Shown here piece by piece: positions 3,001 through 51,108 of a DNA stretch of 64,000 bases. The notes beneath the pieces are model-generated. The model made no database searches and had not been told where the DNA came from. It saw nothing but the letters and a program-made list of their open reading frames with translations. The stretch's first letter is position 1. Each line of letters opens with the position of its first letter. The stretch comes from Micavibrio sp. (GTDB taxonomy: Bacteria > Pseudomonadota > Alphaproteobacteria > UBA2400). The DNA is taken from NCBI GenBank assembly GCA_040376705.1, contig JBEIQE010000005.1, forward strand, positions 64,156-128,155, read 5' to 3'. Both the position numbers and the translations under genes were made by a program.

Positions 3001-6000
3001 CTTACGGTGAGCGAATTGTTGAAATCACCCAATACGAGCGTGTCATCGCCTGCGGCCAGATCAACCGTCATGCCCGAGGCTACTGCGCCCAAGGTTACAA
3101 CGTCATCGCTGGTGCCGCCGGTTACGGTCTCGATGGTGGTTACGGTTACCGAGTTGGTAAAGTCACCCAATACGAGCGTATCGAGGCCCGCACCGAGGCT
3201 GATGCTGCCCGAAGTGATGGCGCTGCCCAGGGTAACGGTGTCAGCCGAAGTACCGCCAACAATGCTCTCGACATTGGTAAGCGTTACGTTGTTGGCGAAG
3301 TTGCCAAGGGTAATGGTGTCAGTACCCGAGCCAAGGTCAATCGTGCCACTGGCGGCGCTGCCCAGAGTAACCGAGTCATCATCGGTACCACCGGTAATGG
3401 TCTCAACGTTCAGAACCGTCAGGCTGTTGGCGAAATCGCCCAGCGTAATGGTGTCATTCCCAAGGCCAAGATTGAAGGTACCCGCCGTAACAGCCGAGCT
3501 GAAGGCAAGCGTATCAGCCTGAGCACCGCCCATGACGCTTTCAATATTGGTCACAGTCAAGGTGTTGGTGAAGTTGCCAAGGGTCAGACGATCAGTGCCA
3601 GAGCCGAGGTCAATCGTGCCAGCCGTAATCGCTGTAGCCAGCGTCACCACATCGGCGCTGTTACCGCCAGTAAGGGTCTCAACATTGCTGACAGTAAGGG
3701 TGTTGACGAAGTTACCAAGGCTGAGCGTGTCATCGCCCGCGCCGAGGTTGATGCTGTAATTAATGGCAGCACTGCCAAGCGTCACTACATCGTCGCTGGT
3801 ACCACCAACAAGGGTTTCGATGTTGCTGGTTGTCAGTGTATTGGCAAAGTCACCCAGCGTGAGCGTATCTGCGCCGCCTGCAAGGTCAACCGTACCGGCT
3901 GTAATGGCTGAGCCCAAGGTTACGTTATCGCCTGCCGCTGCACCGGTAATGGTCTCGATGTTGGTGGCAGTCAGCGTGTTGTTGAAGTTGCCGAGTACGA
4001 GTGTGTCATCGCCCGAGCCGAGGTCGAGTGTACCAGCCGTAATCGCTGCCCCCAGGGTCACGGTATCATCATCCGTACCACCGGTGAGGGTTTCAACACT
4101 GGTTACGGTCAGGGTATTGGCCACATCATCGAGTACCAGCGTATCGTTGCCGGCGCCAAGGTTGACGCTACCGCCCGAGATGCTGCCCGAAATGGTCACC
4201 ACATCGGCCGAGCTGCCGCCAAGGACGCTCTCGATATTGGTTACAGTCAGGGTATTGACGAAGTTGCCAAGGGTCAGGCGGTCAGTGCCTGAGCCGAGGT
4301 CGAGCGTACCGGCTGTAATAGCCGAGCTAAGGGTGACCAGGTCTGAGCTGGTACCACCAATCAATGTCTTAACGTTGCTGACGGTCAGTGTGTTGGCAAA
4401 GTTGCCGAGTGTGAGTGTGTCATCGCCCGCACCGAGGTCAACACTGCCACCCGAGATGGCGGTGCCAAGGGTCACGGTATCATCCGACGTACCGCCAACA
4501 ATGCTTTCGATATTGGTGGTGGTCAGCGTATTGGCAAAGTCACCCAGCGTGAGGCGATCAACGCCCGCACCGAGGTTCAGTGTGCCGGTTGTAATCGCAT
4601 CGCCCAGCGTCACCGCATCGGCCAGCGAGTTACCGACAATGCTCTCGACGTTGGTAACTGTAAGGGTATTGGCAAAAGCACCGAGGGTAAGCACGTCATC
4701 GCCCGAGCCAAGGTCAATCGTACCAGCCGTAATGGCGGTACCGAGGGTCACGGTATCATCATCCGTACCGCCAACCAGTGTTTCGACACTGGCGATGGTG
4801 AGGGTATTGGCCACATCATCAAGCGTGAGCGTATCGTTGCCCGAGCCGAGGTTGATGCTGCCGCCCGAGATGGCACCCGAGATGGTCACAACATCATCAC
4901 TGTTACCACCGACAACACTTTCGATGTTGGTGACGGTCAGGGTATTGGCGAAATTGCCAAGGGTCAGACGGTCGGTACCTGAGCCGAGATCCAGCGTACC
5001 TGTTGTAATGGCCGAGCCGAGGGTCACGAGGTCGGCAGAGGTGCCGCCGGTGAGGGTCTCGACATTCGAAACCGTAAGGGTATTGGCAAAATCACCCAGT
5101 GTGAGGGTATCGTCGCCCGCACCAAGATTGATGTTACCACCCGAGATGGCGGTGCCCACAGTCACCACATCATCACTGGTGCCGCCCATAACGCTTTCGG
5201 TGTTGGTGACGGTCAGCGTATTGGCAAAGTCGCCCAGCGTGAGGCGATCGGTGCCTGCGCCAAGGTTAACTGTGCCGGTTGTAATGGCCGTGCCCAGAGT
5301 AATGTAATCAGCGCCTGAACCACCCACGAGTGTTTCGACGTTCGAAACAGTCACGGTGTTAGAGAAGGTTACGAATGTCAGCGTATCGTCGCCCGAGCCG
5401 AGGTCGATGGTGCCGGTTGTTACCTGCGTACCCAGGGTTACCGAGTCATCATCGCTGCCGCCATTAAGGGTTTCGACGTTAAAGACCGTCAGCGTATTGG
5501 CAAAGTCGCCCAGCGTGAGGGTATCGGTACCTGAGCCGAGGTCAACACGGCCACCCGAGATGGCAGCGCCAAGCGTAACCACATCGCTTGAAGTACCGCC
5601 CATAACGGTTTCGGCATTCGAGGCAGTAACAGTATTGGCAAAGTTGCCAAGGGTGAGGCGGTCAAGCGCGCCATCGCCAAGGTCAATCGTACCAGTCGTT
5701 ACAGCTGTGCCGAGCACAACGAGGTCGGTTGAAGTGCCGCCGGTCAACGTCTCGACGTTGAGCACGGTTACGTTATTGGCAAAATCGCCCAGCGTCAGGG
5801 TATCATCACCTGCGCCAAGGTTCACGGTGCCGGTAATGGCAGCGCCTACGGTCACTACATCATCGCTGGTGCCGCCGGTTACGGTTTCGATGCTCTGCAC
5901 CGTCAGGCTGTTGGCAAAATCACCCAATACGAGCGTATCGTTGCCTGAACCGAGGTTGAGCGTGCCTGCTGTAATGGCTGTAGCCAGTGTTACGGTATCG

Positions 6001-8700
6001 GCGGATATACCGCCAGTGATGGTCTCGACGTTCGAAACGGTAAGGCTGTTGATGAAGTTGCCAAGCACGACAGTATCGTCGCCCGAGCCAAGATCGAAGT
6101 GACCGCCGGCAGCCTGCGCCGTCAGGGTGATCACATCATCGCCGGTGCCGCCCACAACGCTCTCTACGTTGCGTACGCTCACGGCATTGGCTGCGCCATC
6201 GGCCAGCGTCAGCACGTCGGCGCCGCTGCCAAGGTCAACACTTACATCAGTTACTGCTGCGCTAAGGGTAACAAGGTCAACACCCGTACCACCACGCACA
6301 CTCTCAACCGATGTAACAGTGAGGGTATTGGTGAAGTTACCAAGAATGAGCGTATCTGCGCCGCTGCCCAGATCAATCGTGCCAGAACTGATGGCATCGC
6401 CCAGTGTCACGGTATCGGCTGAATCGCCACCCGTGAGGGTTTCAACACCGGTTACGGTAAGTGTATTCACAAAGTCGCCGAGCGTGAGCGTGTCATCGCC
6501 CGCGCCAAGGTTAACCGAGCCACCTGAAATGGCAGCGCCAAGCGTCACCACATCATCGCTGGTGCCACCAGTGACGGTTTCGATGCTCTGGGTTGTTACG
6601 CTGTTGGCGAAATCACCCAATACGAGTGTATCGTTGCCACCACCGAGGTTGACGGTGCCAGCTGTAATTTGGGTTGCGAGAACCACGCGGTCAGTCGAGC
6701 TGCCGCCGGTAATGGTTTCGGTGTTCGAGAGCGTGATGGTGTTGTTGAAGTTGCCAAGAGTAACGGTGTCATCACCCGAGCCGAGGTCGAAGCTGCCCGC
6801 TGTAACTTGTGCACCCATCACGACGACGTCGTCACCAGTACCACCGGTGAGAGTCTCGATACCATTGATGGTAACGGTATTGGCAAAGTCGCCCAGTGTC
6901 AGTGTATCTGTACCGCCACCAAGGTTGATGTTACCCGCGCTCAGTTGCGTGGTAACGGTCACAATATCGTCGCCGCCGTTAGCAGCCACAGTCTCGACAT
7001 TCGCAACACTTACGGTGTTGTTGAAACTGCCAAGCGTAAGCGTATCTGCGCCGGAGCCAAGATCGATGGTGCCTGCAGTAACCTGCGTGCCCAGACGGAT
7101 GCTATCGGCACTATCGCCACCCGTGAGGGTTTCAACATTGCTGACAGTAAGCGAGTTTACGAAGTCACCCAATACGAGCGTGTCGTCGCCTGCACCAAGG
7201 TTCACAGCGCCAACCGACATGGCGGTGCCCAGCGTGACGACGTCATCGCTGGTACCACCGGTTACGGTTTCGATATTCGAGAGGGTAACGCTATTGGCAA
7301 AGTCGCCCAGCGTGAGGCGGTCTGTACCGGCGGCAAGGTCGATAGTGCCAGAGGTAACAGCTGTGCCCAGCGTAATGTTATCTGAACCCGAGCCACCCAC
7401 GATTGTTTCAACATTCGAAACCGTAACCGTGTTGGTGAAGGTCACGAAAGTAAGGGTGTCATCGCCCGAGCCAAGGTCGATGGTGCCACCGGTCACCTGC
7501 GTGCGCAGAGTGACGCTGTCGTCGGATGTACCGCCAACAATGGTTTCGACATTAAAGACGCTTACGCTGTTGGCAAAATCGCCAAGGGTAAGGGTATCAT
7601 CGCCACCAGCAAGGTTAACCGTGCCGTTGATGGCATCGCCCAGCGTTACAGTATCGTTCGATGAATTACCGACGATGCTTTCGATGCCGGTAAGAGTAAC
7701 CGTATTGGTGAAGTTGCCGAGCGTGATACGGTCGGTACCCGAGCCAAGGTCAATCGTGCCAGCAGTTACTGCTGTGCCAAGGGTGACAACATCGTCGGAT
7801 GTACCGCCAACCAGTGTTTCAACATTGCTGACTGTAAGCGTATTGGCAAAGTCGCCCAGTGTCAGTGTGTCATCGCCACCTGCAAGGTCAAAGCGACCGC
7901 TGGCAACAGCCGAGCCCAGTGTAACGATATCATCGCTCGCATCGCCAACGATGCTTTCAATGTTGGTGGTAGTCAGCGTGTTGGCAAAGGCACCAAGGGT
8001 GAGGACGTCAACACCAGAGCCCAGGTCGAGGGTACCCGTGGTAATGGCATCGCCCAGCGTGACGAGGTCAGCACTATTTCCGCCCACCAGTGTTTCAACA
8101 CCAATAACAGTGAGCGTGTTGACGAAGTTGCCAAGGGTGAGTGTGTCATCGCCCGAGCCGAGGTCGAGCGTAATGCCAGCTGCCGCTGTGCCAAGGGTGA
8201 TCGAGTCGTCCGATGTACCGGCAACCAGTGTCTCAACGTTCGAAAGGGTTACGGTATTGGCAAGGTCAGCCAGAGTAAGCGTATCGCTACCGGCGCCAAG
8301 ATTAACACTGCCGTCCATGGCCGTGCTTACAGTTACTGTATCGGCACCGCTTACACCAACGATGCTTTCGATATTCGCTGTCGTTACGCTGTTGGCAAAA
8401 TCACCAAGGGTGAGAACGTCGTTACCCGAACCGAGATCGAGTGTACCGCTGGTGATGGCTGTGCCCAGTGTTACGCTGTCGTTATCGGTACCGCCAACAA
8501 TGGTATCGGCATTTGAAACAGTGAGGTTGTTGACGAAGTCGCCAAGCGTAAGTACATCGCCGCCACCGCCGAGATTATAGGTGCCGTTTACAACTGCGGT
8601 AGAAACAGTGATGAGGTCGGCGCTGGCACCGCCGGTGAAGGTCTCGACACCCGAGATGGTGACGGTATTGTCGGCGTTGCCTAATGTGAGCGTGTCGTTA
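1..8700. repeat. tandem array of ~144-bp degenerate coding repeats (about 60 copies) within the giant gene
   Basis: Periodic recurrence of ...accctcac/ggtgatggt..gttgccaa.gt-type motifs every ~144 bp on the plus strand. Corresponds to the 48-aa protein repeat. Copies are diverged, not identical. Confidence 0.75.
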
Positions 8701-8840
8701 CCCGCCCCGAGGTTAATGGTTGCCGCGGTGAGCGATTCAGTGACGGTGATTACGTCAGCGCCCGATCCGGTTGTCAGCGAGTCGAAGGTAGTGAAAGTGC
8801 CTTCGTTGTTGCCATTGCCCAGCGTAATATCGACAGCCAT
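1..8840 (-). CDS. giant repetitive secreted/surface protein (N-terminal >2,940 aa; partial, C-terminus lies beyond window start); candidate T1SS-type adhesin/large repetitive protein
   Basis: Reverse-complement translation from ATG (complement of cat at ~8838-8840) gives MAVDITLGNGNNEGTFTTFDSLTTGSGADVITVTESLTAATINLGAGNDTLTLGN..., then ~60 degenerate tandem repeats of ~48 aa. Consensus approx DTLTLGDFANTLTVSNVETLTGGTSDDVVTLGTAITAGTIDLGSG. The same frame at the window start reads ...LTLGNFLNTLTVQNIETLTGGSSADVVTLGTQITGGTINLAGGSDT. No minus-strand ORF with a stop is listed in this interval, consistent with one open frame running off the edge. Gly/Thr/Asp/Leu-rich beta-roll/beta-helix-like composition. 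Long plus-strand ORFs here (Pro/Arg/Ser/Val-rich) are the antisense artefact. Family not assignable by eye. Confidence 0.8.
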   Translation of the reverse strand, partial: MAVDITLGNGNNEGTFTTFDSLTTGSGADVITVTESLTAATINLGAGNDTLTLGNADNTVTISGVETFTGGASADLITVSTAVVNGTYNLGGGGDVLTLGDFVNNLTVSNADTIVGGTDNDSVTLGTAITSGTLDLGSGNDVLTLGDFANSVTTANIESIVGVSGADTVTVSTAMDGSVNLGAGSDTLTLADLANTVTLSNVETLVAGTSDDSITLGTAAAGITLDLGSGDDTLTLGNFVNTLTVIGVETLVGGNSADLVTLGDAITTGTLDLGSGVDVLTLGAFANTLTTTNIESIVGDASDDIVTLGSAVASGRFDLAGGDDTLTLGDFANTLTVSNVETLVGGTSDDVVTLGTAVTAGTIDLGSGTDRITLGNFTNTVTLTGIESIVGNSSNDTVTLGDAINGTVNLAGGDDTLTLGDFANSVSVFNVETIVGGTSDDSVTLRTQVTGGTIDLGSGDDTLTFVTFTNTVTVSNVETIVGGSGSDNITLGTAVTSGTIDLAAGTDRLTLGDFANSVTLSNIETVTGGTSDDVVTLGTAMSVGAVNLGAGDDTLVLGDFVNSLTVSNVETLTGGDSADSIRLGTQVTAGTIDLGSGADTLTLGSFNNTVSVANVETVAANGGDDIVTVTTQLSAGNINLGGGTDTLTLGDFANTVTINGIETLTGGTGDDVVVMGAQVTAGSFDLGSGDDTVTLGNFNNTITLSNTETITGGSSTDRVVLATQITAGTVNLGGGNDTLVLGDFANSVTTQSIETVTGGTSDDVVTLGAAISGGSVNLGAGDDTLTLGDFVNTLTVTGVETLTGGDSADTVTLGDAISSGTIDLGSGADTLILGNFTNTLTVTSVESVRGGTGVDLVTLSAAVTDVSVDLGSGADVLTLADGAANAVSVRNVESVVGGTGDDVITLTAQAAGGHFDLGSGDDTVVLGNFINSLTVSNVETITGGISADTVTLATAITAGTLNLGSGNDTLVLGDFANSLTVQSIETVTGGTSDDVVTVGAAITGTVNLGAGDDTLTLGDFANNVTVLNVETLTGGTSTDLVVLGTAVTTGTIDLGDGALDRLTLGNFANTVTASNAETVMGGTSSDVVTLGAAISGGRVDLGSGTDTLTLGDFANTLTVFNVETLNGGSDDDSVTLGTQVTTGTIDLGSGDDTLTFVTFSNTVTVSNVETLVGGSGADYITLGTAITTGTVNLGAGTDRLTLGDFANTLTVTNTESVMGGTSDDVVTVGTAISGGNINLGAGDDTLTLGDFANTLTVSNVETLTGGTSADLVTLGSAITTGTLDLGSGTDRLTLGNFANTLTVTNIESVVGGNSDDVVTISGAISGGSINLGSGNDTLTLDDVANTLTIASVETLVGGTDDDTVTLGTAITAGTIDLGSGDDVLTLGAFANTLTVTNVESIVGNSLADAVTLGDAITTGTLNLGAGVDRLTLGDFANTLTTTNIESIVGGTSDDTVTLGTAISGGSVDLGAGDDTLTLGNFANTLTVSNVKTLIGGTSSDLVTLSSAITAGTLDLGSGTDRLTLGNFVNTLTVTNIESVLGGSSADVVTISGSISGGSVNLGAGNDTLVLDDVANTLTVTSVETLTGGTDDDTVTLGAAITAGTLDLGSGDDTLVLGNFNNTLTATNIETITGAAAGDNVTLGSAITAGTVDLAGGADTLTLGDFANTLTTSNIETLVGGTSDDVVTLGSAAINYSINLGAGDDTLSLGNFVNTLTVSNVETLTGGNSADVVTLATAITAGTIDLGSGTDRLTLGNFTNTLTVTNIESVMGGAQADTLAFSSAVTAGTFNLGLGNDTITLGDFANSLTVLNVETITGGTDDDSVTLGSAASGTIDLGSGTDTITLGNFANNVTLTNVESIVGGTSADTVTLGSAITSGSISLGAGLDTLVLGDFTNSVTVTTIETVTGGTSDDVVTLGAVASGMTVDLAAGDDTLVLGDFNNSLTVSNVETLTAGTGNDTVTLGSAMTTGTIDLAAGNDRLNLGNFANTVTTSNIETVYGGNSADTVTLGTAISGGRVDLGAAADTLTLGDFANTLTVFNVETIVGGTSDDSVTLGTQITTGTIDLGSGNDTLTLVTFTNTLTVSNVETLVGGSGSDTVTLGTAVTAGTIDLGAGVDRLTLGNFANTVTLSNIETVTGNASDDTVTLGSQVTGVIDLAAGDDTLVLGNFANSVTVSNIETVTGGNSDDVVTLGTQVTAGTIDLGSGNDTLVLGNFANTLTLANIETILGSSANDVLSLSTGMNGGTVNLAGGSDTLTLADFNNTLTIISVETLNGGTADDVVTLGGAITSGSVSLGAGDDTLILANAANTLTITDIETLTGGNSADIVTLGSQVTAGTLNLGSGSDILTLGNFANSVTVINVESVVGGTADDVVTLGAAVSGVNVNLGAGTDTLVLGNFNNTLTVSNVETLTGGNSNDTVTLGNAITAGTLDLGSGTDTLVLGAFTNTLTTVNIETITGGNSADTVTLGSQITTGTVNLGSGTDTLILGDFVNTLTIVSVENLTGGTDDDAVTLGSAITTGTINLGAGNDTLTLGAFANTLTVNNVETLTGGAQADRVTFANAITAGTVNLGSGYDTLVLGNFDNTLSINNVEAVIGGSSADIVTVSSALTNGSINLGAGDDTLTLGDFVNTVTVGSVETLTGGSSADVVTLSTAITTGTIDLAGGSDRLTLNNSANTLTIANIESLTGGSNTDVVTVGTAMTGAINLGSGNDTLVLGDFANSLTLTSVETVTGGTSNDALTFAAALSGGTINLGDGDDTVTLGAFANTITLTNVETINGASATDYVTLGSAITTGTINLGAGSDRLTLGNFANELTTSNVESILGNSSTDIVTLATQISGGSINLAGGDDTLTLGNFLNTLTVSNVETLTGGTSGDIVTLGSQVTTGTIDLGAGNDSLTLGNFLNTLTVQNIETLTGGSSADVVTLGTQITGGTINLAGGSDTLI

Positions 8841-9076
8841 AATTTTTACCCCTGAAACCAGGTTGATGCCCACCTACATGGTGGACATTCGTTTAATAAG
8901 GTTAACAGATGTTTAAATTTGCGCCAGTCGGTAATATTTACTTTTACCCTACGTAATGTATTAACGTAGAAGAAAGTGTAACAAAACTGCCGTGTTCGAG
9001 CGATATTAACATGTATATCTAAGCAGGTTAGGGTAGTCTCCTGAGGCCGCGTGTTAATACTTAGAAGGGGCGCTTC
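8841..9076. promoter_or_regulatory. AT-rich divergent promoter region between giant repeat gene (-) and manC (+); contains imperfect inverted repeat CTACGTAAtgtatTAACGTAG at ~8949-8969
   Basis: Marked drop in GC relative to flanks. Divergent start codons on either side. GAAGGGG Shine-Dalgarno about 8 nt before manC ATG at 9077. Confidence 0.4.
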
Positions 9077-33566: not shown

Positions 33567-34442
33567 ATGAGCGACGCTCCACAGATATTCGACCGCCAGT
33601 TATTAGCCCAGCGCCGCACACGCGCGGCCAGCAGCTTTGCGTCTGCGCGCTTTTTGCACGAAGAAGTGGGCACACGTCTGCTCGAGCGCCTCTCCGAGAT
33701 CAAACGCAGCTTCCCGCTGGCGGTAAATCTGGGCGCGATGGATGGTCACTTAACAAAGCAGCTCATCGGCCAGAATGGCATTGAAAGCGTTGTGCAGTTC
33801 GAGCTGTGCGAAGCATTAGCCCAGCAGGGCAGCAATATTGTGGTGGCAGATGAAGAATGGCTGCCACTGGCCCCGCAAACGGTTAACCTCATCATCAGCA
33901 ACCTCGCGCTGCATTGGGTGAACGACCTGCCCGGCGCACTGGCGCAAATCCGCATGGCGCTGAAGCCGGATGGTTTGTTCATGGGGGCGATATTGGGCGG
34001 CGAGACGCTATTCGAGCTGCGCCGCTGCCTGATGGAAGCCGAGATGGCAGCGACTGGTGGCATCTCCCCGCGCCTCTCGCCCCTCACCGAAGTGCGCGAT
34101 GCCGGCGGACTTATACAACGTGTAGGTTTAGCCCTGCCGGTGGTGGACCGCGAAATGATTACGGTAACCTATGCCGACCCCATCAAACTGCTCTATGACC
34201 TGCGCGCTATGGGCGCGACTAACCTCACCCACAACCGCCCGCGCAAACCACTGACACGCACCGTGCTGATGGATGCGCTCGCGCGCTATCGTGAGCACTT
34301 CACGGTAGAAGAAGACCGCGTACAAGCCACGTTCGAAGTGATTTACCTGGCTGGCTGGGCCCCGCACGAGAGCCAGCAGAAACCCTCCCCACGCGGCAGT
34401 GCCAAGCATTCGCTGGTCGAGGCGTTGTTGCCTAAAACCTAA
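33567..34442 (+). CDS. class-I SAM-dependent methyltransferase, BioC/NDUFAF5-like
   Basis: Divergent from comF as in many alphaproteobacteria; ..NLIISNLALHWVNDLPGAL..LKPDGLFMGAILG... Start placed at internal Met (MSDAPQIF) to avoid overlap with comF; track ORF starts 33519. Confidence 0.65.
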   Translation: MSDAPQIFDRQLLAQRRTRAASSFASARFLHEEVGTRLLERLSEIKRSFPLAVNLGAMDGHLTKQLIGQNGIESVVQFELCEALAQQGSNIVVADEEWLPLAPQTVNLIISNLALHWVNDLPGALAQIRMALKPDGLFMGAILGGETLFELRRCLMEAEMAATGGISPRLSPLTEVRDAGGLIQRVGLALPVVDREMITVTYADPIKLLYDLRAMGATNLTHNRPRKPLTRTVLMDALARYREHFTVEEDRVQATFEVIYLAGWAPHESQQKPSPRGSAKHSLVEALLPKT

Positions 34443-35329
34443 TACCAACGCAGCGTGGATATAAAGTCCTTGCTTGGCTCGCATATAAAATCATCAGTGA
34501 GATTTGCATGTGGCAGCTCTTCTAAAGCATTGGTTCCGCGTAAAATTTCTGTCACTAGCGCTTTTGGCTCGAAAGCAAAACTGCGATAGGACCAATGATA
34601 AAATGATAGTCCCCCGCCAGAAGATTCAATAATCACACGTGCATGATTTTGGCCATATCTAGGGCCATAACTAAGCGTATTGCCAAAATGTGTAAGAGCC
34701 CCATCTTCCATCATTAAAAATGGAGACATCTGCCAAACCGAGCGTAATGGAGTCTTATCAGGCAACTGAACACAGAAGGCCTGACCGGCCATAGAAAAAC
34801 TATGTATGCCCGCAACAGCATAAGCTGTAACATATAAAGATGAGACTAGAACCAAACCAACAAGGCCCACAACAAGAACAATGAATATTCTATTTGCAGC
34901 CGTACGCATGCCGCGAATGTAATATGTAGCTGCTGCCAAAATTACCGCAGCCAGTATCAAGTTCGCGCCAAGCCCACTTAACACTGCCATCATGTCTGCT
35001 GCGTGGATTGTAATCCATGCAGTTACAACCCCAAAAAGCATGGCTATAGCCATAGGTGCCGTCCAGCCTTTCATTAGCGCATACCCAAGCTCCACAGCAA
35101 GCCGCAGAGTTGACCAAATCAAAGCCGAGGCGATAAAAACAAAAGTGCAAAAAAACAAGAAAGCGTTGCTGCGCTTAAATGGAAAATCTGTCAGATGCAA
35201 AGTAATGAACAAAGGCACAAACGCAAAAATTACCGCAACAAATCCCGCATAAAAAGCTTCTTTTGGAAGGCTAAGAACCAGCACTCCGACTAATACAAAG
35301 AATAAAAGCGGAAAAATCAATATTTCCAT
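34439..35329 (-). CDS. integral membrane hypothetical protein (about 6 TM + ~110-aa C-terminal soluble domain), AT-rich
   Basis: Strongly hydrophobic N-terminal two-thirds. Gene body visibly AT-richer than flanks. Confidence 0.5.
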   Translation of the reverse strand: MEILIFPLLFFVLVGVLVLSLPKEAFYAGFVAVIFAFVPLFITLHLTDFPFKRSNAFLFFCTFVFIASALIWSTLRLAVELGYALMKGWTAPMAIAMLFGVVTAWITIHAADMMAVLSGLGANLILAAVILAAATYYIRGMRTAANRIFIVLVVGLVGLVLVSSLYVTAYAVAGIHSFSMAGQAFCVQLPDKTPLRSVWQMSPFLMMEDGALTHFGNTLSYGPRYGQNHARVIIESSGGGLSFYHWSYRSFAFEPKALVTEILRGTNALEELPHANLTDDFICEPSKDFISTLRWY

Positions 35330-36853: not shown

Positions 36854-37702
36854 ATGTCGCGGCTACCTTGGTGGACTAAAATTGCGGCCAAGCTGGTTTT
36901 GGCCCGCCTGCCGCTGCCGGCCAGTTTCTGGCGGCAGGTCAAGCTGTTCCGCCATGGGGCGATGGACGATCCTGCCTATGCTTTACGCATTTTCCGCCAT
37001 CATTTTCAGCGTGCTGGCCAGTTGCAACCGGGCTGGACCTGCCTTGAGCTGGGCCCCGGCGACTCGCTACTCACCGCCCTGATTGCCAAGGCTTACGGCG
37101 CTGGCCGTGTGTGGCTGGTGGATGCCGGCGACTTTGCCTCAACCGAGGTGGCAAGCTTCCTGAAACTGGCGGATATGCTGAAGGCCGAAGGCCTGCCGGT
37201 GCCCGAAATTACCGCCGCCATGAACGTGCCTGAAGTGCTGGAGCTGTGCGATGCCACCTACCTCACGCATGGCCTCGCCAGCCTCAGGCTCATTCCGCGG
37301 CAGGGGGTAGACTTTGCCTTCTCCAACGCGGTGCTCGAGCATGTGCGTGTACATGAATTTGCCCAAACCATGGAGCAGCTGAAAATGGCAATGAAGCCCT
37401 TTGGCGTGCAGAGCCATGCGGTTGACCTGAAGGACCATCTTGCGGCATCGCTCAACAACCTGCGTTTTTCAAAAGCTGTGTGGGAGAATAACCTCTTCGC
37501 CCGCTCGGGCTTTTATACCAACCGCCTGCGCCATAGCGAGATCATGCAGGTGCTGGAGAATTGCGGCTATAAGATTGAAGAGCCAAGCCAGACCAGCTGG
37601 CCCGTATTACCTTTGCCGCGCGCCAAAATGCACGCCGACTTCCAGCGCTTTAGTGATGCCGACCATATGGTGAGCGACTTTGAGGTCGTGTTGAAGGCCT
37701 AG
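36854..37702 (+). CDS. putative class-I SAM-dependent methyltransferase
   Basis: LELGPGDSLLTALIAKAYGAGRVWLVDAGD (motifs I/II), ..FAFSNAVLEHV.. . Confidence 0.55.
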   Translation: MSRLPWWTKIAAKLVLARLPLPASFWRQVKLFRHGAMDDPAYALRIFRHHFQRAGQLQPGWTCLELGPGDSLLTALIAKAYGAGRVWLVDAGDFASTEVASFLKLADMLKAEGLPVPEITAAMNVPEVLELCDATYLTHGLASLRLIPRQGVDFAFSNAVLEHVRVHEFAQTMEQLKMAMKPFGVQSHAVDLKDHLAASLNNLRFSKAVWENNLFARSGFYTNRLRHSEIMQVLENCGYKIEEPSQTSWPVLPLPRAKMHADFQRFSDADHMVSDFEVVLKA

Positions 37703-37705
37703 CGC

Positions 37706-38299
37706 CTAAGCTGCGCGAAACCAGAAAACCACGTAATCAAAATTATCCGGGCAATCAACCGTTGCTCCATTAATCGGCGGATAGAGGAACTGGTGGTTTG
37801 AATTACCGTCTACCGATATTTGAACGTAGATCATATCCGTGCCATTCTTGGCCAATCCGGCAAACCGCCTGATGATCTGCTTGCACTCGGCCCCACTAAC
37901 CCGACTTTGCTTGCTTGGGATGGACGGCCCATTCATCGTCACATTAAAAACAGGGCAGTTGGAATAACAGGACAAGGCCGTGCGCAGAGAGACCCCAACA
38001 GGCAGCAAAGCTTCCTGATTACTGGCAATCAGCTGTGCGCCGGGCAAAAGGCCGGCACGCACTGAGGTCTGAGTTACATTCACACCAGTACTTGGTGTGG
38101 TTGGGTAGCTCTCACGCGGGTAAAGTCCGCGCGACTGCGCCGCAAAAAGAATGGCATTGGCAACAGTCGTAACGCGGTTCTGTTCGCGCACTTGAGCTGC
38201 CGCCAACCAGATACCGCCAATAACAAGACCAAGAATGCCAAGGATAATGGCTGACTCGATAAGTGAAAATGCACTACGGCTCTGAAAATTGAGGTACAT
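37706..38299 (-). CDS. prepilin-type (type IV pilin/pseudopilin-like) protein, Ala at -1
   Basis: N-terminus MYLNFQSRSA|FSLIESAIILGILGLVIGGIW: class-III signal/N-methylation motif with Glu+5. Start taken at Met24 of the track ORF (37706..38368). AT-rich. Confidence 0.6.
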   Translation of the reverse strand: MYLNFQSRSAFSLIESAIILGILGLVIGGIWLAAAQVREQNRVTTVANAILFAAQSRGLYPRESYPTTPSTGVNVTQTSVRAGLLPGAQLIASNQEALLPVGVSLRTALSCYSNCPVFNVTMNGPSIPSKQSRVSGAECKQIIRRFAGLAKNGTDMIYVQISVDGNSNHQFLYPPINGATVDCPDNFDYVVFWFRAA

Positions 38300-38538
38300 A
38301 CCACGACGATATACATAGGTTTTTCTATTACAAATCAATTTACTGGGCAGATTATGCTTTATGCACAAGACGCATCATTTTTGATCTCCAGACCCACCTA
38401 CTTACTTTGAAAGCGTCTTGGCGAACACAGGAAAGAGGTAGCTTTACGCCAAGCCATGCAGGCTTACGCAGGGTGGATTATGAAAATGCAGCAGGGTCAG
38501 GAAATCGTTACAAACGGGTGGCTAGTTGATTGACCAGT

Positions 38539-39141
38539 TTAGCGTGGGAAAATCAGCGTTAATGCCCCATTTAAGTGACGATCGCAAATGAGATAATATG
38601 GGTCATATCCATTTTGCCGTACACCATTGCGTACATCGTCTCCGCTTATAACGTCACCATGACCATTAACAACGGTTATATAACCTTTAAACTGGCTAAG
38701 GTAAGCGTAACAATCTTCTGGTTGGATTCTTCCGTCGGCGCTGCCAAAGCTAATAGAAAAACTACCGTTCACTTCGGAAGGCCACCCACCAGAGGCATAG
38801 TACCTAATAAAGAGAGCTCCGCCATCTGGCGTTTCTAAGCCGCGCCACTGCATAGTTGGAATAAGATAAGGATAATTAATTACACCCTTGGCCATAAGAT
38901 AATTATGCAGGACTATGTTACCGGAGCTGACTGGCTCGACATGACGAAAATCGTTTTGTAATGTCGAAAGAGCCAGTGAGACGCGCCTGATCGTATCATT
39001 CCGGATAACCCTCGACTGAGCTGCCGCGGCAGCGGTCCAAATCCCACCAATCACCAACCCTACAACACCTAGTACGATGGCGGCTTCAACCAGACTGAAG
39101 CCGCGGCCCAAGCTGATTTGATTTTTGGTAAAATAGTACAT
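38539..39141 (-). CDS. prepilin-type (type IV pilin/pseudopilin-like) protein
   Basis: MYYFTKNQISLGRG|FSLVEAAIVLGVVGLVIGGIW: canonical G-1, F+1, E+5 prepilin motif. Paralog of the downstream gene. AT-rich. Confidence 0.65.
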   Translation of the reverse strand: MYYFTKNQISLGRGFSLVEAAIVLGVVGLVIGGIWTAAAAAQSRVIRNDTIRRVSLALSTLQNDFRHVEPVSSGNIVLHNYLMAKGVINYPYLIPTMQWRGLETPDGGALFIRYYASGGWPSEVNGSFSISFGSADGRIQPEDCYAYLSQFKGYITVVNGHGDVISGDDVRNGVRQNGYDPYYLICDRHLNGALTLIFPR

Positions 39142-39487
39142 ATTTCTATGTTATAATCATCTTATTTCAAGGTCGATTGTTTTTTAGAACAGGCGGCAGC
39201 CGATTAACATGCCTCCTATTGCCATAATTAACTGCCGATGCAGAAACGGCAAAAAGCCAGACCGGAAAAAGCGACGGCTAGGTTGTGGCTACGCCTCATG
39301 GAGAACTTGAAATAACTGAAGATTGGAAACTAGCAAAATCGATAATATGGCCTCAAGCCTACCAATTCCCGCCTTTTCAGGCAGTTAATGCCAATTTAGC
39401 CCCCCCTGCGACGGCTACCGACATTGACACCAGCCCTGGCAATCCCTAAGTGAAAGGCTCGATTTTTGTTTCTAAGGTGATTCCTCC

Positions 39488-42328: not shown

Positions 42329-43204
42329 ATGAGCCAGTCCCACATCAGCATCAACTGTGCTGCAGCGCCTTATAACCCGCTGCCGGTTATTGATGCTGCC
42401 TTTGCACAAGTGGCCCGCATCCGCGCCAACAGCACCGCGCCCATATTTATTCTCGCGGGCGAACAGCATAACGACCAGATCGAAACATTCCTGCCCTATG
42501 TGGCAGCCCATCGCGCTGGTTTACTGGGTGGCACTACAATTCCTCACCAGCTTGCGACCCTGCAATTTGCCCTCGAGCGCCCGCATGATACGCTGCAGAA
42601 GGATCTGACCAAGTTTAAGAAAGACCTTCCCGGTCTGATAAAGCCGCACGATAGGCCATCGGTTCAGCTCGCCCGCATCCTGAGTTTTTATGGCAATGGC
42701 GCTGGCAACCCACAGGATGCCTCACGCGTTATGCTCACGGCTTTTACAGATAACAACGTGCCACTGATCGCTGTCGATGCCAGTATCAAATGGGGCCGGG
42801 TCTTCCCGTTCCTTGACCCCAAGGATGAGCTGACGCGCCAGTTCATGCCTGACGGAGAACCAAGCCACCACCTCGGATTCATGGCGGGCGAACCCCGCGC
42901 AATGCATAGCCGCAACCGGCTTATGGCGCATTTGCTGCAGCAACAGGCGAGCACCCCCAACGCGCTGATCTGGATGAACTGCGGGTATGAGCACCTGTTT
43001 GACGATGCCAAGCACTCAGTGTCCGGCCTCGCAGGCCTGCTAAATGGTCATGTTCTGGTAATTGCCAATACGGCGCATCTGCCCGCCAGTCAGCCAGCAA
43101 CTGACGCATTAATCGTTTTCAGTGATCTGGCTGACACCAGGAATAGTCAAACTGCAACGGCGCATGTTTTGCGCCACCTCAGGCAGGCAACGCCCTCACC
43201 TTAA
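42329..43204 (+). CDS. hypothetical protein X1 (291 aa); possible TIKI/TraB/ChaN/GumN-superfamily fold
   Basis: Two GxxH motifs in the two halves (FILAGEQHND and WMNCGYEHL), reminiscent of the pseudo-twofold TIKI/TraB/EreA/ChaN superfamily. Assignment by eye only. Confidence 0.45.
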   Translation: MSQSHISINCAAAPYNPLPVIDAAFAQVARIRANSTAPIFILAGEQHNDQIETFLPYVAAHRAGLLGGTTIPHQLATLQFALERPHDTLQKDLTKFKKDLPGLIKPHDRPSVQLARILSFYGNGAGNPQDASRVMLTAFTDNNVPLIAVDASIKWGRVFPFLDPKDELTRQFMPDGEPSHHLGFMAGEPRAMHSRNRLMAHLLQQQASTPNALIWMNCGYEHLFDDAKHSVSGLAGLLNGHVLVIANTAHLPASQPATDALIVFSDLADTRNSQTATAHVLRHLRQATPSP

Positions 43205-43262
43205 CGGCATTAACCATAATACCGGCTTGCACTGCGCCAAGCAGCATTGCTACCCTTCGTGC

Positions 43263-43856
43263 ATGCTTAACCGCTTCAACACCCTTGGCACTCGCGCCGC
43301 AGTACGCAGCGTTCAAAGCATCATGCCGCCGGCTCTGCCCGAGATTCAAGACTGGTTACGCAGCAGTGGCGTGCACAAGGCCACACTATTCGGCAGCTCG
43401 CTCTATGCCACCCAGCTGGGCCACCCTAACCGGATTAACGATCACGATCTGATTATTGGCCAGACCGATCTGCGTTGGTGGAAGCTGCGCGAGCGCCTGG
43501 CCCGCACCGCACGTATGGAATACTCAACCGACCACCCGCTGCAGCCCAAGCGGCTTTTCTATACCCTGCCCAGCGGCGTTAAAACCGATGTCTGCCTTTC
43601 ATACGCACCGCGCAGCCCGCGCTTCATGGCCGAGCATGCGCTGTTTGGCATTTCTGCCATTGCGGCAGATGTGTTCACCAAGCAGGTCTGGGTACGGCCT
43701 GAGTTTGAACAGCATATGCGTGAGCATGTCATCCGCCCGCTCAACACTGACGATACAGGCCTTATTCTCCGCTACGCCGATAAAATGTCTGACAAGTTCC
43801 CGGATTTCAGGGTTGATCTGGGCTCGGCCTACCGGCCCAAAAACCATTATGCCTGA
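43263..43856 (+). CDS. Pol-beta-superfamily nucleotidyltransferase-like protein P1 (intact hG[GS]..DhD motif)
   Basis: ..ATLFGSSLYATQLGHPNRINDHDLIIG.. matches the minimal NTase signature (cf. FGSxxxG..SDhDhhh). Downstream ..GVKTDVCLS.. as candidate third acidic residue. Start at Met48 of the track ORF (43122..43856). Confidence 0.5.
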   Translation: MLNRFNTLGTRAAVRSVQSIMPPALPEIQDWLRSSGVHKATLFGSSLYATQLGHPNRINDHDLIIGQTDLRWWKLRERLARTARMEYSTDHPLQPKRLFYTLPSGVKTDVCLSYAPRSPRFMAEHALFGISAIAADVFTKQVWVRPEFEQHMREHVIRPLNTDDTGLILRYADKMSDKFPDFRVDLGSAYRPKNHYA

Positions 43857-43926
43857 TTAACCTATCTCGCCTTGCACAATAGCCACGCCGCTTGCTAGCC
43901 TGCCCGAAAGTAAACAGGGGGCAAAT

Positions 43927-44349
43927 ATGGGTGAGGCAGTTTCACAGGTCAGTCCACAATTCTCGGACCTCGTACGCCGGCGCGAGCTGAGCCTGGTCGC
44001 GCCAACGCGCCATGCCGAAGTCGCCGAGCAGCTTGATGACAGCATCATGCGCCCGCTGCTGGATGAGCAGCTACGCGAATGTATTTTCAACTTCGCACAA
44101 CTCGCCCAGCCTACCGGCACACGGATTGTCAGTGATAACGGGCTCGACCCTGTATTGGCCTATGCGCTCTTCACCGACATACCGGTTTTGCCGCAAGACC
44201 GGGCCGAAGCCGAAGAGCTGGCCTGCGATGAATTCCGCCGCCTCGCCGCACTGGATGATGAAAGCATTCCCGGTGCAGCGCTTACTTTATGCCCGAATGG
44301 CGAGGTTACCCTGCGCCCTGTCATGCAAATGAGGATGATTATACGATGA
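43927..44349 (+). CDS. hypothetical protein X2 (140 aa)
   Basis: Acidic small protein. Stop overlaps start of next gene (ATGA). Confidence 0.4.
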   Translation: MGEAVSQVSPQFSDLVRRRELSLVAPTRHAEVAEQLDDSIMRPLLDEQLRECIFNFAQLAQPTGTRIVSDNGLDPVLAYALFTDIPVLPQDRAEAEELACDEFRRLAALDDESIPGAALTLCPNGEVTLRPVMQMRMIIR

Positions 44350-44864
44350 GCGAAACCTATGCCATTAACGGCCTGCAGTTCAGCCGCCCGTTCCGCACCA
44401 TCATCGAGCCGCACTTCCAGCTGCTCGAACTTGTGGGCGCTAAAGACGCACTGCTTTATGGCAGCTCCATCTGGGCGATCGACCATTTGCAGCTGCGGCC
44501 CGAGCAGCCGTTCAACTACCTCGCCTTCCTGCGGAAGTCGGAGCTGATGCCGATGGCGCGCAAAATGCAAACGACACTCGCCAATTCAGCGGTGGTCGTC
44601 ACCCCAAGAGCCAAGGAAATGGCCATCGAGTTCAAGGCGCGGTTCAATGCCAAGCCGCTTAACATCATCTTCTTCCACGAGCGAATGCCGAGCATTGCCG
44701 AAGTCATAGAAGCTGCCCCCACCGTGGCCGCTGCCGCCATCATGACGCGGCATCAGCAAATCGAGGTAAGCGCCGCCTACAACAACGCCCGCCAGCAAGG
44801 CGGTATTGCACCGCAACCGAATACCTCAGCCAAGAGCCATGCATTTAGTTGGATTTATGAGTAA
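44346..44864 (+). CDS. degenerate paralog P2 of the NTase-like protein
   Basis: ..ALLYGSSIWAIDHLQLRPEQPFNYLAF.. aligns with P1's GSS..DHDLII but lacks the acidic pair. Start at Met20 of the track ORF (44289..44864), translationally coupled to X2. Confidence 0.45.
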   Translation: MSETYAINGLQFSRPFRTIIEPHFQLLELVGAKDALLYGSSIWAIDHLQLRPEQPFNYLAFLRKSELMPMARKMQTTLANSAVVVTPRAKEMAIEFKARFNAKPLNIIFFHERMPSIAEVIEAAPTVAAAAIMTRHQQIEVSAAYNNARQQGGIAPQPNTSAKSHAFSWIYE

Positions 44865-44944
44865 TTTTATTGCTCAAAAAGATGTTGACGGGCAAATTTA
44901 AACCATACTAAGGTTCCTGCCATACAAATTTGCAGGAGCTTCTT

Positions 44945-45433
44945 ATGCAGCGCACAAACGACTCACCCGCGATCACCTCCGCCACCGCTCAGGCCTTCAA
45001 ATTCCTGAGCCAGCTTGGCCTGCGTGAACCGGTGGTCTTTGGCGAAGACGTGGACGCCAGCGCTACCAACAAGCGCAGCGGTAAAGTGCACCTGCAGGTG
45101 GTTGCCGCCCTGCCCGAAGGCCAGAACCCGGTGGCCAGCTGGTTGCGCCTGACGCAAAAGCTGAGCGCCGCCACCAGGCTCAACTCGCGCCGCGCCCCCG
45201 GCGAGATCATGCCACGCGAAGTGATGTTCTATAACGACCAGAGCCAGTTTGGCGTGCTCATCGGCTCGACCCATCTGCACGTGCAGGTAAGTGAGAAGCC
45301 GGTTGCTGCCATGGATATTCTGGCACGCCAGCCGGTCGAGCAGCAGGTAGCCGTGCATACAGCGCAAGGCAGCCTTGCACGTACCGAAACGCAGGCACGC
45401 AAAGACCTGCGCATGCAGCTGGAACTCGCATAA
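44945..45433 (+). CDS. hypothetical protein X3 (163 aa)
   Basis: AGGAG Shine-Dalgarno about 7 nt upstream of ATG 44945. Contains ..VVFGEDVDASATNKRSGKVHLQVV.. weakly resembling the same G[SD]..h.hhh segment. Confidence 0.4.
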   Translation: MQRTNDSPAITSATAQAFKFLSQLGLREPVVFGEDVDASATNKRSGKVHLQVVAALPEGQNPVASWLRLTQKLSAATRLNSRRAPGEIMPREVMFYNDQSQFGVLIGSTHLHVQVSEKPVAAMDILARQPVEQQVAVHTAQGSLARTETQARKDLRMQLELA

Positions 45434-45539
45434 ACAGCGATTAACTCAGCTGTCAGACTGACGCATGGGTAAGCGCAAAATTTCATACAATCGCGCTTGA
45501 CCTTGCGGGCCGAGAAGCCGAATAGAGCATCTTACCAAC

Positions 45540-46127
45540 ATGCTTATCAACGGCCCCATCTTCAGTTATGAGCCCGCCACCATCTCGGCCCTGTACGAGA
45601 ATGTGCTCACTCGTGATTTTGAACTGCTGCAGCGTATTGGTATGCGCGGTGCTGTGGCTTATGGCGATGCGCTGCGCGATGCCGATAACGAAAGCCCCAC
45701 ACATCAGTTCAATTACTATGGCCAGCTGCCACTGGCCAGCAGCAGCTTAACTGCGCTTAGCCTTGTGACCCGCGGCCTGTTGCGCGAGCTCAAGGGCACC
45801 GCCCTGCAAAGCCTGAAGGCCACACAAAACGATAACGCCATGCGCTTTACCTTTACGCTTGAGGGCCGCAAGCTCGACATTACCATGCTTAACAATTGCG
45901 CCCCAGGGGCCGAACTGGCTGCGCGCGCCGCGCCCATCGGCCTTTCGGGTATTGCTGTTAACGATCGGGGCTTCTGCTTCGCCAGCGAAGCCTACCTTGA
46001 CGATAAATCCCTAAAAACCATGACAATAAAACGTGACATGGACCCCAGCGATCGTCATTATGCCCGCAAGCAAGCAGGCTGCCTTTTGGCCCTGCCCGCT
46101 TACAAAGGTTTCAAAATCTGCGGGTGA
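45540..46127 (+). CDS. degenerate paralog P3 of the NTase-like protein
   Basis: ..AVAYGDALRDADNESPTHQFNYYGQL.. ; shares RDADN and FNY elements with P4 and P2 respectively. Confidence 0.45.
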   Translation: MLINGPIFSYEPATISALYENVLTRDFELLQRIGMRGAVAYGDALRDADNESPTHQFNYYGQLPLASSSLTALSLVTRGLLRELKGTALQSLKATQNDNAMRFTFTLEGRKLDITMLNNCAPGAELAARAAPIGLSGIAVNDRGFCFASEAYLDDKSLKTMTIKRDMDPSDRHYARKQAGCLLALPAYKGFKICG

Positions 46128-46133
46128 TTTAAC

Positions 46134-46709
46134 ATGGACCATACGCCTCGTGCCCTTCCACCTTATCTGGAAGAGCTTCGTGATCTTTCAAGCGCCATGG
46201 GCGTAACCAAATCACTGCTGGTAGGTAGCGCCTTGCGCGATGCCGATAACGGCATTCCGGTTACCTCCTACAGCCTCTACATGCTGCCCACGCGCGAAAT
46301 ACCCACCCATAAGGCAATTGAAATCTTCATCAAGGAAAGCGGCCCCGGCAGCCGCCTCATGCGCAGCTTTAACAACAAGCCACGACATGAAGTGCGTATG
46401 GCCACCGGCCAGATTGCCAATATCAACTTCTGCCATGAAGCCTGGATGCTTGAAGCCGAAACCATTGTTAATCGCGTTCCCAACGGACTCTCGGCCGTCG
46501 CGATGGATCTGTTCACGGGTGAGATCAAGAGAACCGAGCTTTATATGCTCGACCGCAATGAAGGCGTGATTACGCAAGCCGTTCCCTCACATGACCTCGG
46601 CAATCTGGTGGCCCTGAGTGTGCAAAAGCGCTACCCCACCTACCCGATTATGGCAGACGGTAACAAGCAGGTGCTATACCCGCCGCTCAAGAGCGTGGCG
46701 CTGGCTTAA
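46134..46709 (+). CDS. degenerate paralog P4 of the NTase-like protein
   Basis: ..SLLVGSALRDADNGIPVTSYSLYML.. (compare P3 YGDALRDADNESP). 6-bp gap from P3. Confidence 0.45.
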   Translation: MDHTPRALPPYLEELRDLSSAMGVTKSLLVGSALRDADNGIPVTSYSLYMLPTREIPTHKAIEIFIKESGPGSRLMRSFNNKPRHEVRMATGQIANINFCHEAWMLEAETIVNRVPNGLSAVAMDLFTGEIKRTELYMLDRNEGVITQAVPSHDLGNLVALSVQKRYPTYPIMADGNKQVLYPPLKSVALA

Positions 46710-50112: not shown

Positions 50113-50622
50113 TCAAAGCTGTATGGCCGCGTAATCGAGCACGCTCAAACCACGTGGCGTAATCACCGCCACTGTCGCTCTGGTTACATGACCAAACTGC
50201 AAGCTGGGCGGGGCTAAATACTCATGCGCCAGCAGATTATCGAAAATCGCTGCCGCGCGTGCCGGGCCCACATGACACGCGCCAAAACCAGCCGCGACCA
50301 GGCCTTCGCTATGCGCTGTCTGCAAAATGGCTTTGGCTGCAGCCTGAATAACAAGGTCAGGATTACGGCCCATCAGCATATCGGCCATTGCCTCGCCAGC
50401 TACGGTCAGCTGATAGCCCATCATGCTCTGGCCGTGTTCCTTCATACCTGCAAGCTGCACCAGCCTGCCGTATTCCAGCGCAGCAATCGCCTCTTCAAAC
50501 CCAACACCGCGAGGTGCATAAGCGGCATAGGTAGCGCGCAGGTCATCGCCGCTCATGCAGCCGTTTTTATTCAGCGCAATCGGCTCGACAATGGCAAGAG
50601 TGGCTTTCACGAGATCGCGCAT
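50113..50622 (-). CDS. hypothetical protein, paralog pair member 1 (169 aa)
   Basis: Shares H[VI]GPAR-x3-I-x3-L-x2-H-x-Y block (CHVGPARAAAIFDNLLAHEYLA) with the adjacent gene. Confidence 0.45.
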   Translation of the reverse strand: MRDLVKATLAIVEPIALNKNGCMSGDDLRATYAAYAPRGVGFEEAIAALEYGRLVQLAGMKEHGQSMMGYQLTVAGEAMADMLMGRNPDLVIQAAAKAILQTAHSEGLVAAGFGACHVGPARAAAIFDNLLAHEYLAPPSLQFGHVTRATVAVITPRGLSVLDYAAIQL

Positions 50623-50634
50623 CAGGCTGGCTCC

Positions 50635-51108
50635 TTAACCGGCATAACTGCATTTTTGCATGACTGCCTGCCCAAGCTGGGTCAGGCGGTATGTACGGCC
50701 CAAATGTAACTGTTCAACATAGGCATGCTCGGTAAGGCTGGAGATAATACCATTATGGCGCGCCGGTCCGATATGAGTTGGCCTGATGTTTCCCGGGTGC
50801 TCACCAAAGGCAACTCCCTGGAGGATTCGTACGGCAGCATCCATCTCGAATAGCTTGATCTGATGAGCAGAAAGACCGCGGAAGCTATCAGCCATGCGCT
50901 CGCCTTTGGTGCTGAGCATGACCTTATCCTTGGCGGTATTGGGCTTGATCGCGCCAATCTGGTGCAGCTGAATGACGGCGGCGTCAAACACCTCCATGGG
51001 CTGACCGGATACCTTGGCGATGCGCAACATGACGGCAGGCGAGACAGCTGCCCCAGTAATAGCCATTCTCTCGATGATATGACGGGCCATCAGTTCCTGA
51101 GGGATCAT
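50635..51108 (-). CDS. hypothetical protein, paralog pair member 2 (157 aa)
   Basis: THIGPARHNGIISSLTEHAYVEQ block; same strand, 12-bp spacing to paralog. Confidence 0.45.
   Translation of the reverse strand: MIPQELMARHIIERMAITGAAVSPAVMLRIAKVSGQPMEVFDAAVIQLHQIGAIKPNTAKDKVMLSTKGERMADSFRGLSAHQIKLFEMDAAVRILQGVAFGEHPGNIRPTHIGPARHNGIISSLTEHAYVEQLHLGRTYRLTQLGQAVMQKCSYAG

Follow-up and report, generated by a model that had tools for sequence, protein, structure and literature searches.

The closest described relatives of the proteins considered here are the major pilins of type IVb pili. Bundlin (BfpA, PF05307, 1zwt) of enteropathogenic Escherichia coli is encoded in one plasmid-borne operon of 14 bfp genes, among them that for its own peptidase, BfpP. 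TcpA of Vibrio cholerae and CofA of enterotoxigenic E. coli (8uhf, 1oqv, 3s0t, 9iuf) are also encoded in operons; their leaders measure about 25-30 aa, and the +1 residue is Met. PilS (PF08805), known from the thin pilus of the IncI1 plasmid R64 and from Salmonella Typhi, possesses a class III signal; its mature part of ~180-190 aa combines a long alpha-1 helix with an alpha/beta head and has a C-terminal Cys pair. In Micavibrio itself, scattered prepilin genes have already been reported: for M. aeruginosavorus ARL-13, “multiple dispersed pil genes” were described, with eight prepilin-signal proteins in three operons and high expression of pilus-related genes (PMC3189940). Here, two neighboring genes, arranged head-to-tail on the minus strand and designated A and B, were analyzed in a 64,000-nucleotide stretch of DNA from Micavibrio sp. 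(contig JBEIQE010000005.1, positions 64,156 to 128,155), hereafter the window. Both genes encode proteins with prepilin signals, and the products are probably subunits of a type IVb-class pilus, assembled by a PilN-R machine encoded elsewhere.

The N-terminus of gene A reads ...ISLGRG↓FSLVEAAIVLGVVGLVIGGIW, where the arrow marks the predicted cut, and contains the motif G↓FSLVE. That of gene B reads ...QSRSA↓FSLIESAIILGILGLVIGGIW, with the motif A↓FSLIE. Phe is located at +1 and Glu at +5 in both. The original prediction, an earlier note on this DNA, had described two prepilin-like genes with class III N-termini and Glu+5 and leaders of 10-14 aa; the N-termini that it quoted are present exactly where it placed them, and the leaders are 14 aa in gene A and 10 aa in gene B. 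The cut position of gene A aligns with the family-invariant G/A-F-x-L-x-E in the family alignments. For gene B, the longest open reading frame (ORF) reaches a TTG at 38368, and the database copy P0122 begins at the ATG of 38299. The traits of the type IV pilin superfamily, namely a charged leader, a hydrophobic stretch, Glu+5, a helix followed by a head, and a Cys pair, are all present in A and B. The N-terminal alignment, the relatives and the confident models demonstrate that these signals are not due to chance. A six-frame motif scan of the 64-kb window revealed no further class III signals, nor did inspection of the N-termini of all ORFs without a Pfam match.

Pairwise BLASTP aligned A with B over the first ~34 residues only (65% identity, E 1e-10). 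Identity reaches 68% across the 28 helix positions and falls to ~15% in the remainder, where the heads cannot be aligned by BLAST, and each protein has closer relatives in other genomes than its neighbor. Because the alignment is confined to the N-terminus, A and B belong together in one superfamily and do not represent a recent tandem duplication. The term “paralogous” that had been applied to them is thus appropriate for the N-terminal segment, and not for the heads or in the sense of a recent tandem origin. The database search returned 275 relatives of gene A at E <= 1e-3, many of which carry Pfam PF08805 (PilS) and/or PF05307 (bundlin), while the head domain of gene A alone has just 2 relatives among 1.84 billion representative proteins. 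Gene B has 8 relatives in all, the closest with 57, 48 and 45% identity.

The family to which both proteins belong is uncharacterised, and is distinguished by a highly conserved N-terminal helix and very variable heads: among 123 members, mean pairwise identity is 82% in the first 28 mature residues versus 22% in the rest. Its N-terminal consensus is RGFNLIEAAIVLGVVGLVIGGIWVAA, accompanied by two conserved cysteines. The leader has a median of 14 aa, and Phe is located at +1 in 127/129 members. The mature part holds two cysteines in 96 of the 129 members and four in 30. In gene A, C144 is invariant in alignment A1 and nearly so in A2, and C186 is invariant in both; in gene B an additional subfamily pair, Cys111 and Cys115, is observed upstream of Cys139 (alignments A3 and A4). 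When the family profile, built from the 123 sequences, was compared with all solved-structure sequences, matches with E < 1e-3 were solely to type IVb major pilins, namely BfpA 1zwt (3.5e-9), TcpA 8uhf (2e-6) and S. Typhi PilS 1q5f (4.2e-6); CofA 9iuf matched with E 0.019. The match to BfpA, the best obtained, covers 143 positions of the profile, the Cys-bounded C-terminal region among them, and several relatives carry PF05307. The mature sizes of 186 and 187 aa are within the range of type IVb major pilins (about 180-200 aa).

Structure prediction, which the original prediction had proposed, was performed with AlphaFold2 (AF2), and a long helix followed by an alpha/beta head was obtained for both proteins. 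For gene A, with a predicted local distance difference test (pLDDT) score of 81.5, the helix comprises residues 17-64; for gene B, with a pLDDT of 90.2, the helix spans residues 13-59 and strands complete the head. The sole credible Foldseek matches of the gene A model were S. Typhi PilS 3fhu (prob 0.98) and CofA 3s0t (prob 0.89). For gene B, the Foldseek listings were discarded as noise and the profile comparison was relied on instead: once the N-terminus is taken off, its head subfamily can be aligned with PilS-like pilins that are linked to machinery (hhalign probability 80%, E 1.5e-5). The gene A head domain, represented by 2 sequences only, gave no significant hhalign alignment with other subfamilies. 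The features of both genes and of the surrounding islet are listed in Table 1.

Table 1. Positions within the window of genes A and B, their parts and the islet that contains them.
Feature	Positions	Strand	Basis
Gene A: prepilin, 200 aa, ATG start; 14-aa leader + 186-aa mature pilin-like protein	38539..39141	-	ORF, translation
Gene A leader MYYFTKNQISLGRG; predicted peptidase cut after Gly14, Phe15 = +1	39100..39141	-	sequence; cleavage predicted
Gene A conserved hydrophobic N-terminal helix, mature residues 1-28, FSLVEAAIVLGVVGLVIGGIWTAAAAAQ, Glu at +5	39016..39099	-	family alignment
Gene A presumed disulfide-bounded C-terminal region, Cys144 (38710-38712) to Cys186 (38584-38586)	38584..38712	-	conserved cysteines; disulfide putative
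Gene B: prepilin, 197 aa, ATG; 10-aa leader ending in Ala + 187-aa mature pilin-like protein	37706..38299	-	ORF
Gene B leader MYLNFQSRSA; predicted cut after Ala10	38270..38299	-	sequence; cleavage predicted
Gene B conserved hydrophobic N-terminal helix, mature residues 1-28, Glu at +5	38186..38269	-	alignment to gene A
Gene B segment bounded by conserved Cys139 (37883-37885) and Cys183 (37751-37753)	37751..37885	-	alignments A3, A4
Low-GC islet, methyltransferase stop codon to secA start codon	37703..39487	.	GC 0.477
Spacer between gene A and gene B, 239 bp, GC 0.439	38300..38538	-	composition
Divergent intergenic region between gene A and secA, 346 bp, GC 0.454; presumably with both promoters	39142..39487	.	

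The resemblance to PilS includes all the characteristics of that protein given above, and many family members carry PF08805 and are placed after PilN/O/P/Q/R-type genes. Unlike PilS, A and B are under the PF08805 threshold, have Phe at +1 and no pil neighbors, and possess heads that are only ~10% identical to it; nor, unlike R64, is a PilV-type adhesin or a shufflon located near them. Unlike BfpA, they are surrounded by no operon and have no known peptidase. TcpA and CofA are also recovered by the profile, CofA is the second structural match of gene A, and the related machinery includes a TcpQ-domain protein, but the leaders of A and B are 10-14 aa with Phe at +1. The compact operon that is typical of type IVb major pilins is lacking around A and B and is observed for some of their relatives.

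A and B could alternatively be pseudopilins or secretion subunits that form a short periplasmic piston, with the PilN-R-like machine acting as a type II-like exporter of hydrolases or effectors. Type IVb systems such as TCP (the toxin-coregulated pilus) and CFA/III secrete proteins as well, several relatives are labelled “pseudopilin PulG” by JGI, and the sole NCBIfam match of A and B is GspH, a type II secretion system (T2SS) pseudopilin, over the N-terminus. Moreover, the T2SS of M. aeruginosavorus is incomplete, without GspC/G/H/K, and pilus proteins have been suggested as substitutes (PMC3189940). However, the GspH matches score 16.6 and 13.9 bits, where the cut-off is 80, and cover the N-terminal 38 residues only, that is, the shared helix, and the GspH label was rejected. 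The mature size of ~187 aa, the Cys pair and the profile matches are those of surface-filament major pilins and not of GspG-K, and PilO (PF06864), TcpQ and PilS, present in the associated machinery instead of Gsp parts, are markers of the R64/TCP type. A secretory function of this kind is consequently judged unlikely.

Machinery for assembly is absent from the locus. Between 9 and 64 kb, Pfam scans covered most ORFs of >= 130 aa; with the giant ORF at 1-8873 included, they gave housekeeping or unknown genes only, and none for a pilus ATPase, platform, secretin or peptidase came to light in the 64-kb window. A tblastn search with a set of related PilN/O/P/Q/R, DotB and IcmT proteins found nothing in the window, and the A24 peptidase motif GxGDxK was not found there. 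The absence of machinery, originally proposed for about 20 kb, is therefore extended to the whole window.

The relatives show how such genes are arranged. In a scan of species-representative genomes, which did not recover the genome of the window itself, the family was located in Micavibrio sp. UBA2400, in metagenome-assembled genomes (MAGs) that bear the label Pseudobdellovibrionaceae or Bdellovibrionales, and in further MAGs from the Alphaproteobacteria, Pseudobdellovibrionaceae being the NCBI family that holds Micavibrio. In one Micavibrio-like MAG, whose IspG and FtsK are 85% and 67% identical to those of the window, at least 8 such pilin genes were counted by motif scan; these identities point to a Micavibrio relative as the probable host. 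Where machinery is present, the order is TcpQ-domain protein, secretin, PilO, PilP, T2SSE ATPase and T2SSF platform, followed by the pilin; pilins directly after machinery genes are observed in the fetched loci L003/L010 (Micavibrio sp. UBA2400), L012, L017 and L020. The same genomes hold pilins with no machinery within 10 kb (L011, L014, L006, L008, L013, L016, L019 and L015). Relatives of gene B adjoin mraZ/rsmH, mnmE, or degP/serB/miaA, so that among the relatives examined it is common for these pilin genes to be dispersed between core genes. Scattered pilins are typically 5-10 GC points under their locus, whereas machinery-linked pilins match theirs. A PilQ/PilR pair (L029 10001-12831) and a secretin-PilO-PilP-PilQ-PilR operon (L033 424-7094) are both located, in two related metagenomic genomes, among housekeeping genes with no adjacent pilin, implying that the machinery itself is fragmented and lies apart from its substrates.

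Because related genomes scatter their pilins away from one cluster, the word “orphan”, which the original prediction had used, describes the locus and not necessarily the system: it holds in that no machinery is present at the locus, and not in the sense of something unusual. Machinery encoded elsewhere, in which case the original prediction would no longer have regarded the genes as orphans, is likely. Sequencing run ERR9973207, which holds the islet as L001, has further family members on Logan contigs L002 and L025; among them P0003 and P0092 are divergently arranged, and P0125 adjoins mraZ/rsmH. Since the same run holds these members, the genome of the window may encode five or more such pilins, if they share its genome. 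A PilQ homolog search and the accompanying cluster listing gave no member attributable to sample ERR9973207.

Several details of the related loci were also recorded. In UBA2400 the pil cluster (L003/L010, DDSC01000035.1 1-20564) has a DotB-like ATPase and IcmT upstream and TrbI/DotG and DotH/IcmK downstream, and the pilin is followed by a second small T2SSE ATPase, of 317 aa, and by a conserved ORF of 198 aa. In L020, DotB-like and IcmT matches were detected only upstream of the pil cluster. Machinery-linked pilins in tandem are found at L007 10004-10522 and 10740-11258, with identical leaders, N-termini and length, and at L012 3934-4464 and 4571-5101, where the leaders differ. The L013 locus, of a Micavibrio-like MAG, contains two ispG copies (1270-2325 and 3468-4532), each ~85% identical to IspG of the window, representing either a real duplication or an assembly artefact.

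The proximity of Dot/Icm genes to the pil cluster, on both sides in UBA2400 and on one side in a MAG labelled Rickettsiales, where DotB-like and IcmT genes lie upstream, introduces another possible use of the filament. A and B might be thin-pilus subunits of a Dot/Icm conjugation system, IncI/R64-like or borne by an integrative and conjugative element (ICE), with the islet as a fragment of the element and mating-pair stabilisation as the function. Pfam PilS is defined on R64-type thin-pilus pilins, which accords with this proposal, and the M. aeruginosavorus genome contains several ICE-like islands (PMC3189940). It should be noted, however, that the islet lies between core genes and lacks an integrase, a tRNA, flanking repeats and transfer genes, and that the L029 and L033 machinery is located among housekeeping genes on contigs without Dot/Icm genes. 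A conjugative role is thus regarded as quite improbable. It concerns the use to which the pilus is put, and is otherwise compatible with A and B being type IVb-class subunits assembled by a machine encoded elsewhere.

The islet is also marked by its composition. No other 1785-bp window in the 64 kb has so low a GC content (mean 0.569, standard deviation 0.022), which bears out the earlier description of an AT-rich segment of ~1.8 kb. The neighbors of the islet are core genes, namely those for a weakly matching methyltransferase, a peptidyl-prolyl isomerase, a NUDIX protein and SecA; aspartokinase, PtsP, RodZ, IspG, RF1, PrmC, FtsK and LolA, among others, are encoded farther out in the window. 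No flanking repeats (beyond short matches at chance level), tRNA genes or Rfam matches were found around the islet, and no terminator-like site was found between genes A and B. Variability of the islet, which had been suggested as a check, was observed in a metagenomic relative. On the metagenome contig L035 the methyltransferase gene retains 87.7% DNA identity until 12 bases before its stop, similarity ends at 37690-37702, and a different AT-rich gene, of the DUF6714 family (GC 0.46, L035 706-1263, minus strand), occupies the slot where the window has gene B. Because L035 has a different AT-rich gene there, the site is variable and was probably supplied horizontally, with exchange within the lineage as the probable source. 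The horizontal acquisition suggested at the outset is accordingly plausible, as similarity stops on the methyltransferase side and the slot of L035 is differently filled.

Alternatively, the two genes would be inert cargo, recently acquired or decaying, true orphans that are unexpressed or unassembled, with gene B disabled by Ala at -1. The lack of machinery in 64 kb, the lowest GC in the window together with the variable slot, the nearly unique head of gene A in public data, and the fact that no promoter-like or ribosome-binding signals stand out are all consistent with this reading. Against it, both frames are intact, no family-invariant residue or cysteine has been lost, confidence in the AF2 models is high, and several related genomes that possess the machine display the same scattered layout. 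At -1, Ala recurs across divergent head groups and alternates with Gly in the subfamily of gene A, which suggests that it is tolerated. Among 129 family sequences, Gly is located at -1 in 117 and Ala in 12, the Ala form being always A↓FSL and belonging to several head-domain groups; within the three-member head subfamily of gene A, P0002 and P0277 have Ala whereas gene A has Gly. Prepilin peptidases have been described as cutting after Gly or Ala (PMC3244431). As Ala is recurrent in the family and is among the residues after which these peptidases cut, it appears to be a tolerated variant and a defect seems unlikely. The expectation that Ala at -1 impairs cleavage is not sustained, given its presence in 12/129 members, including two of the three in the subfamily of gene A. 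That A and B are inert is therefore considered rather unlikely, and each of the three alternatives is less well supported than assembly of A and B into a type IVb-class pilus.

The process by which such a pilus would be assembled may be outlined as follows. Prepilins A and B would each be inserted in the inner membrane by the hydrophobic N-terminal segment, and a prepilin peptidase would then cut after Gly14 in A or Ala10 in B, so that Phe would become residue +1 and Glu residue +5. Subsequently, a machine of the R64-thin-pilus type, encoded elsewhere and consisting of the PilQ ATPase, the PilR platform, the PilN secretin and PilO/PilP, would polymerise A and/or B through the conserved N-terminal helix, while the divergent heads would make up the filament surface. 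The scattered paralogs are envisaged as most likely alternative or co-assembling subunits that would alter what the pilus sticks to.

A number of observations weigh against this assignment. A and B are under every Pfam pilin-domain threshold, PF08805 and PF05307 included, and only N_methyl was recorded, itself below its cut-off of 21.2 (16.2 and 13.6 bits; E 0.0076 and 0.05). The Foldseek matches of the gene A model are weak by E-value (0.015 for 3fhu and 0.05 for 3s0t), and Foldseek with the gene B model gave no significant match. The strong N-terminal conservation of the family partly reflects ascertainment, shared words having seeded the homolog search. In two traits, the Phe at +1 and the leader of 10-14 aa, A and B are intermediate or come nearer to type IVa pilins, classical type IVb pilins having leaders of about 15-30 aa and a residue other than Phe at +1. 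As regards the machine, no gene for PilQ, PilR, PilN or an A24 peptidase was found in the 64 kb of this genome that the window covers, and no A24 peptidase motif was found in any of the fetched loci. Upstream of genes A and B, no sigma-70-like site was found on the coding (minus) strand and no sigma-54 or sigma-28 consensus, nor did either consensus appear consistently upstream of 42 family genes in the fetched loci. A shared 8-mer upstream of family genes was likewise not found.

The notion of alternative subunits is drawn in parallel to other predators. In Bdellovibrio the flp1-4 genes are unlinked (PMC5430801), and in Myxococcus differing minor-pilin sets, the “Tip” sets of the Kil pilus, fit the pilus to different prey (PMC12075869). 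In both, several pilin genes, some of them far off, serve one predator pilus machine. Unlike A and B, which are of major-pilin size and type IVb-like, those components are Tad/Flp pilins of ~60 aa or minor-pilin tip complexes, so that a role of A and B in prey contact would be only an analogy. Tad/Flp pilins (about 50-80 aa, with G↓xxxxEY) were also tried as a class for A and B and rejected, as the two proteins are 197-200 aa with (G/A)↓FSL(V/I)E and no Flp Pfam match. M. aeruginosavorus ARL-13 is the same kind of organism with the same dispersed layout, a likeness based on description (PMC3189940). Its pilins may belong to other families, because M. aeruginosavorus was not among the genomes that the scan recovered with the strict N-terminal patterns of the present family.

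Other parts of the window displayed features of their own. A second low-GC islet is located 2.4 kb from the pilin genes, between methyltransferase and NUDIX genes; its 296-aa ORF (34439-35329, minus strand) has many hydrophobic segments, a GC content at third codon positions of 0.38 versus ~0.65 in its neighbors, and neither Pfam nor NCBIfam gave a match for it. At least 2957 aa are encoded by the giant ORF at 1-8873 (minus strand), which is cut off by the start of the window and for which the sole Pfam match is one short DUF3181 stretch. Downstream of secA, runs of ORFs without Pfam matches extend over 42329-46709 and 50113-51108, where weak paralogy was detected between 44289-44864 and 45540-46127 (22% identity, E 4e-5) and between 50113-50622 and 50635-51108 (33% identity, E 1e-4).

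For the lineage, the two genes are a real find and a fairly ordinary one, adding two divergent members to a recognisable class of pilins. In annotation, the ORFs of A and B are to be named type IVb-like pilins, the Ala at -1 is not to be taken for a defect, and “no machinery nearby” should not be equated with “no machinery”. Because the host is a Micavibrio-like alphaproteobacterium, the target of the pilus is likely to be other bacterial cells, either prey or mating partners. A bolder proposal, speculative and on balance doubtful, is that full-length type IVb pilin genes, each expressed independently, form a repertoire that Micavibrio-like predators maintain and exchange horizontally, with a highly conserved helix, differing heads and variable AT-rich slots at scattered chromosomal sites. 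One PilN-R machine, embedded among Dot/Icm genes in some genomes, would assemble these pilins interchangeably, thereby retargeting the pilus to the surfaces of different prey or partner cells; delivery of effectors or DNA by Dot/Icm might also be guided in this manner. If the scattered pilins are indeed alternative subunits of one machine, they would offer a simple genetic handle on the recognition and holding of different target cells by an epibiotic predator, and the link between the type IVb pilus cluster and Dot/Icm genes in the relatives would then merit experiment.

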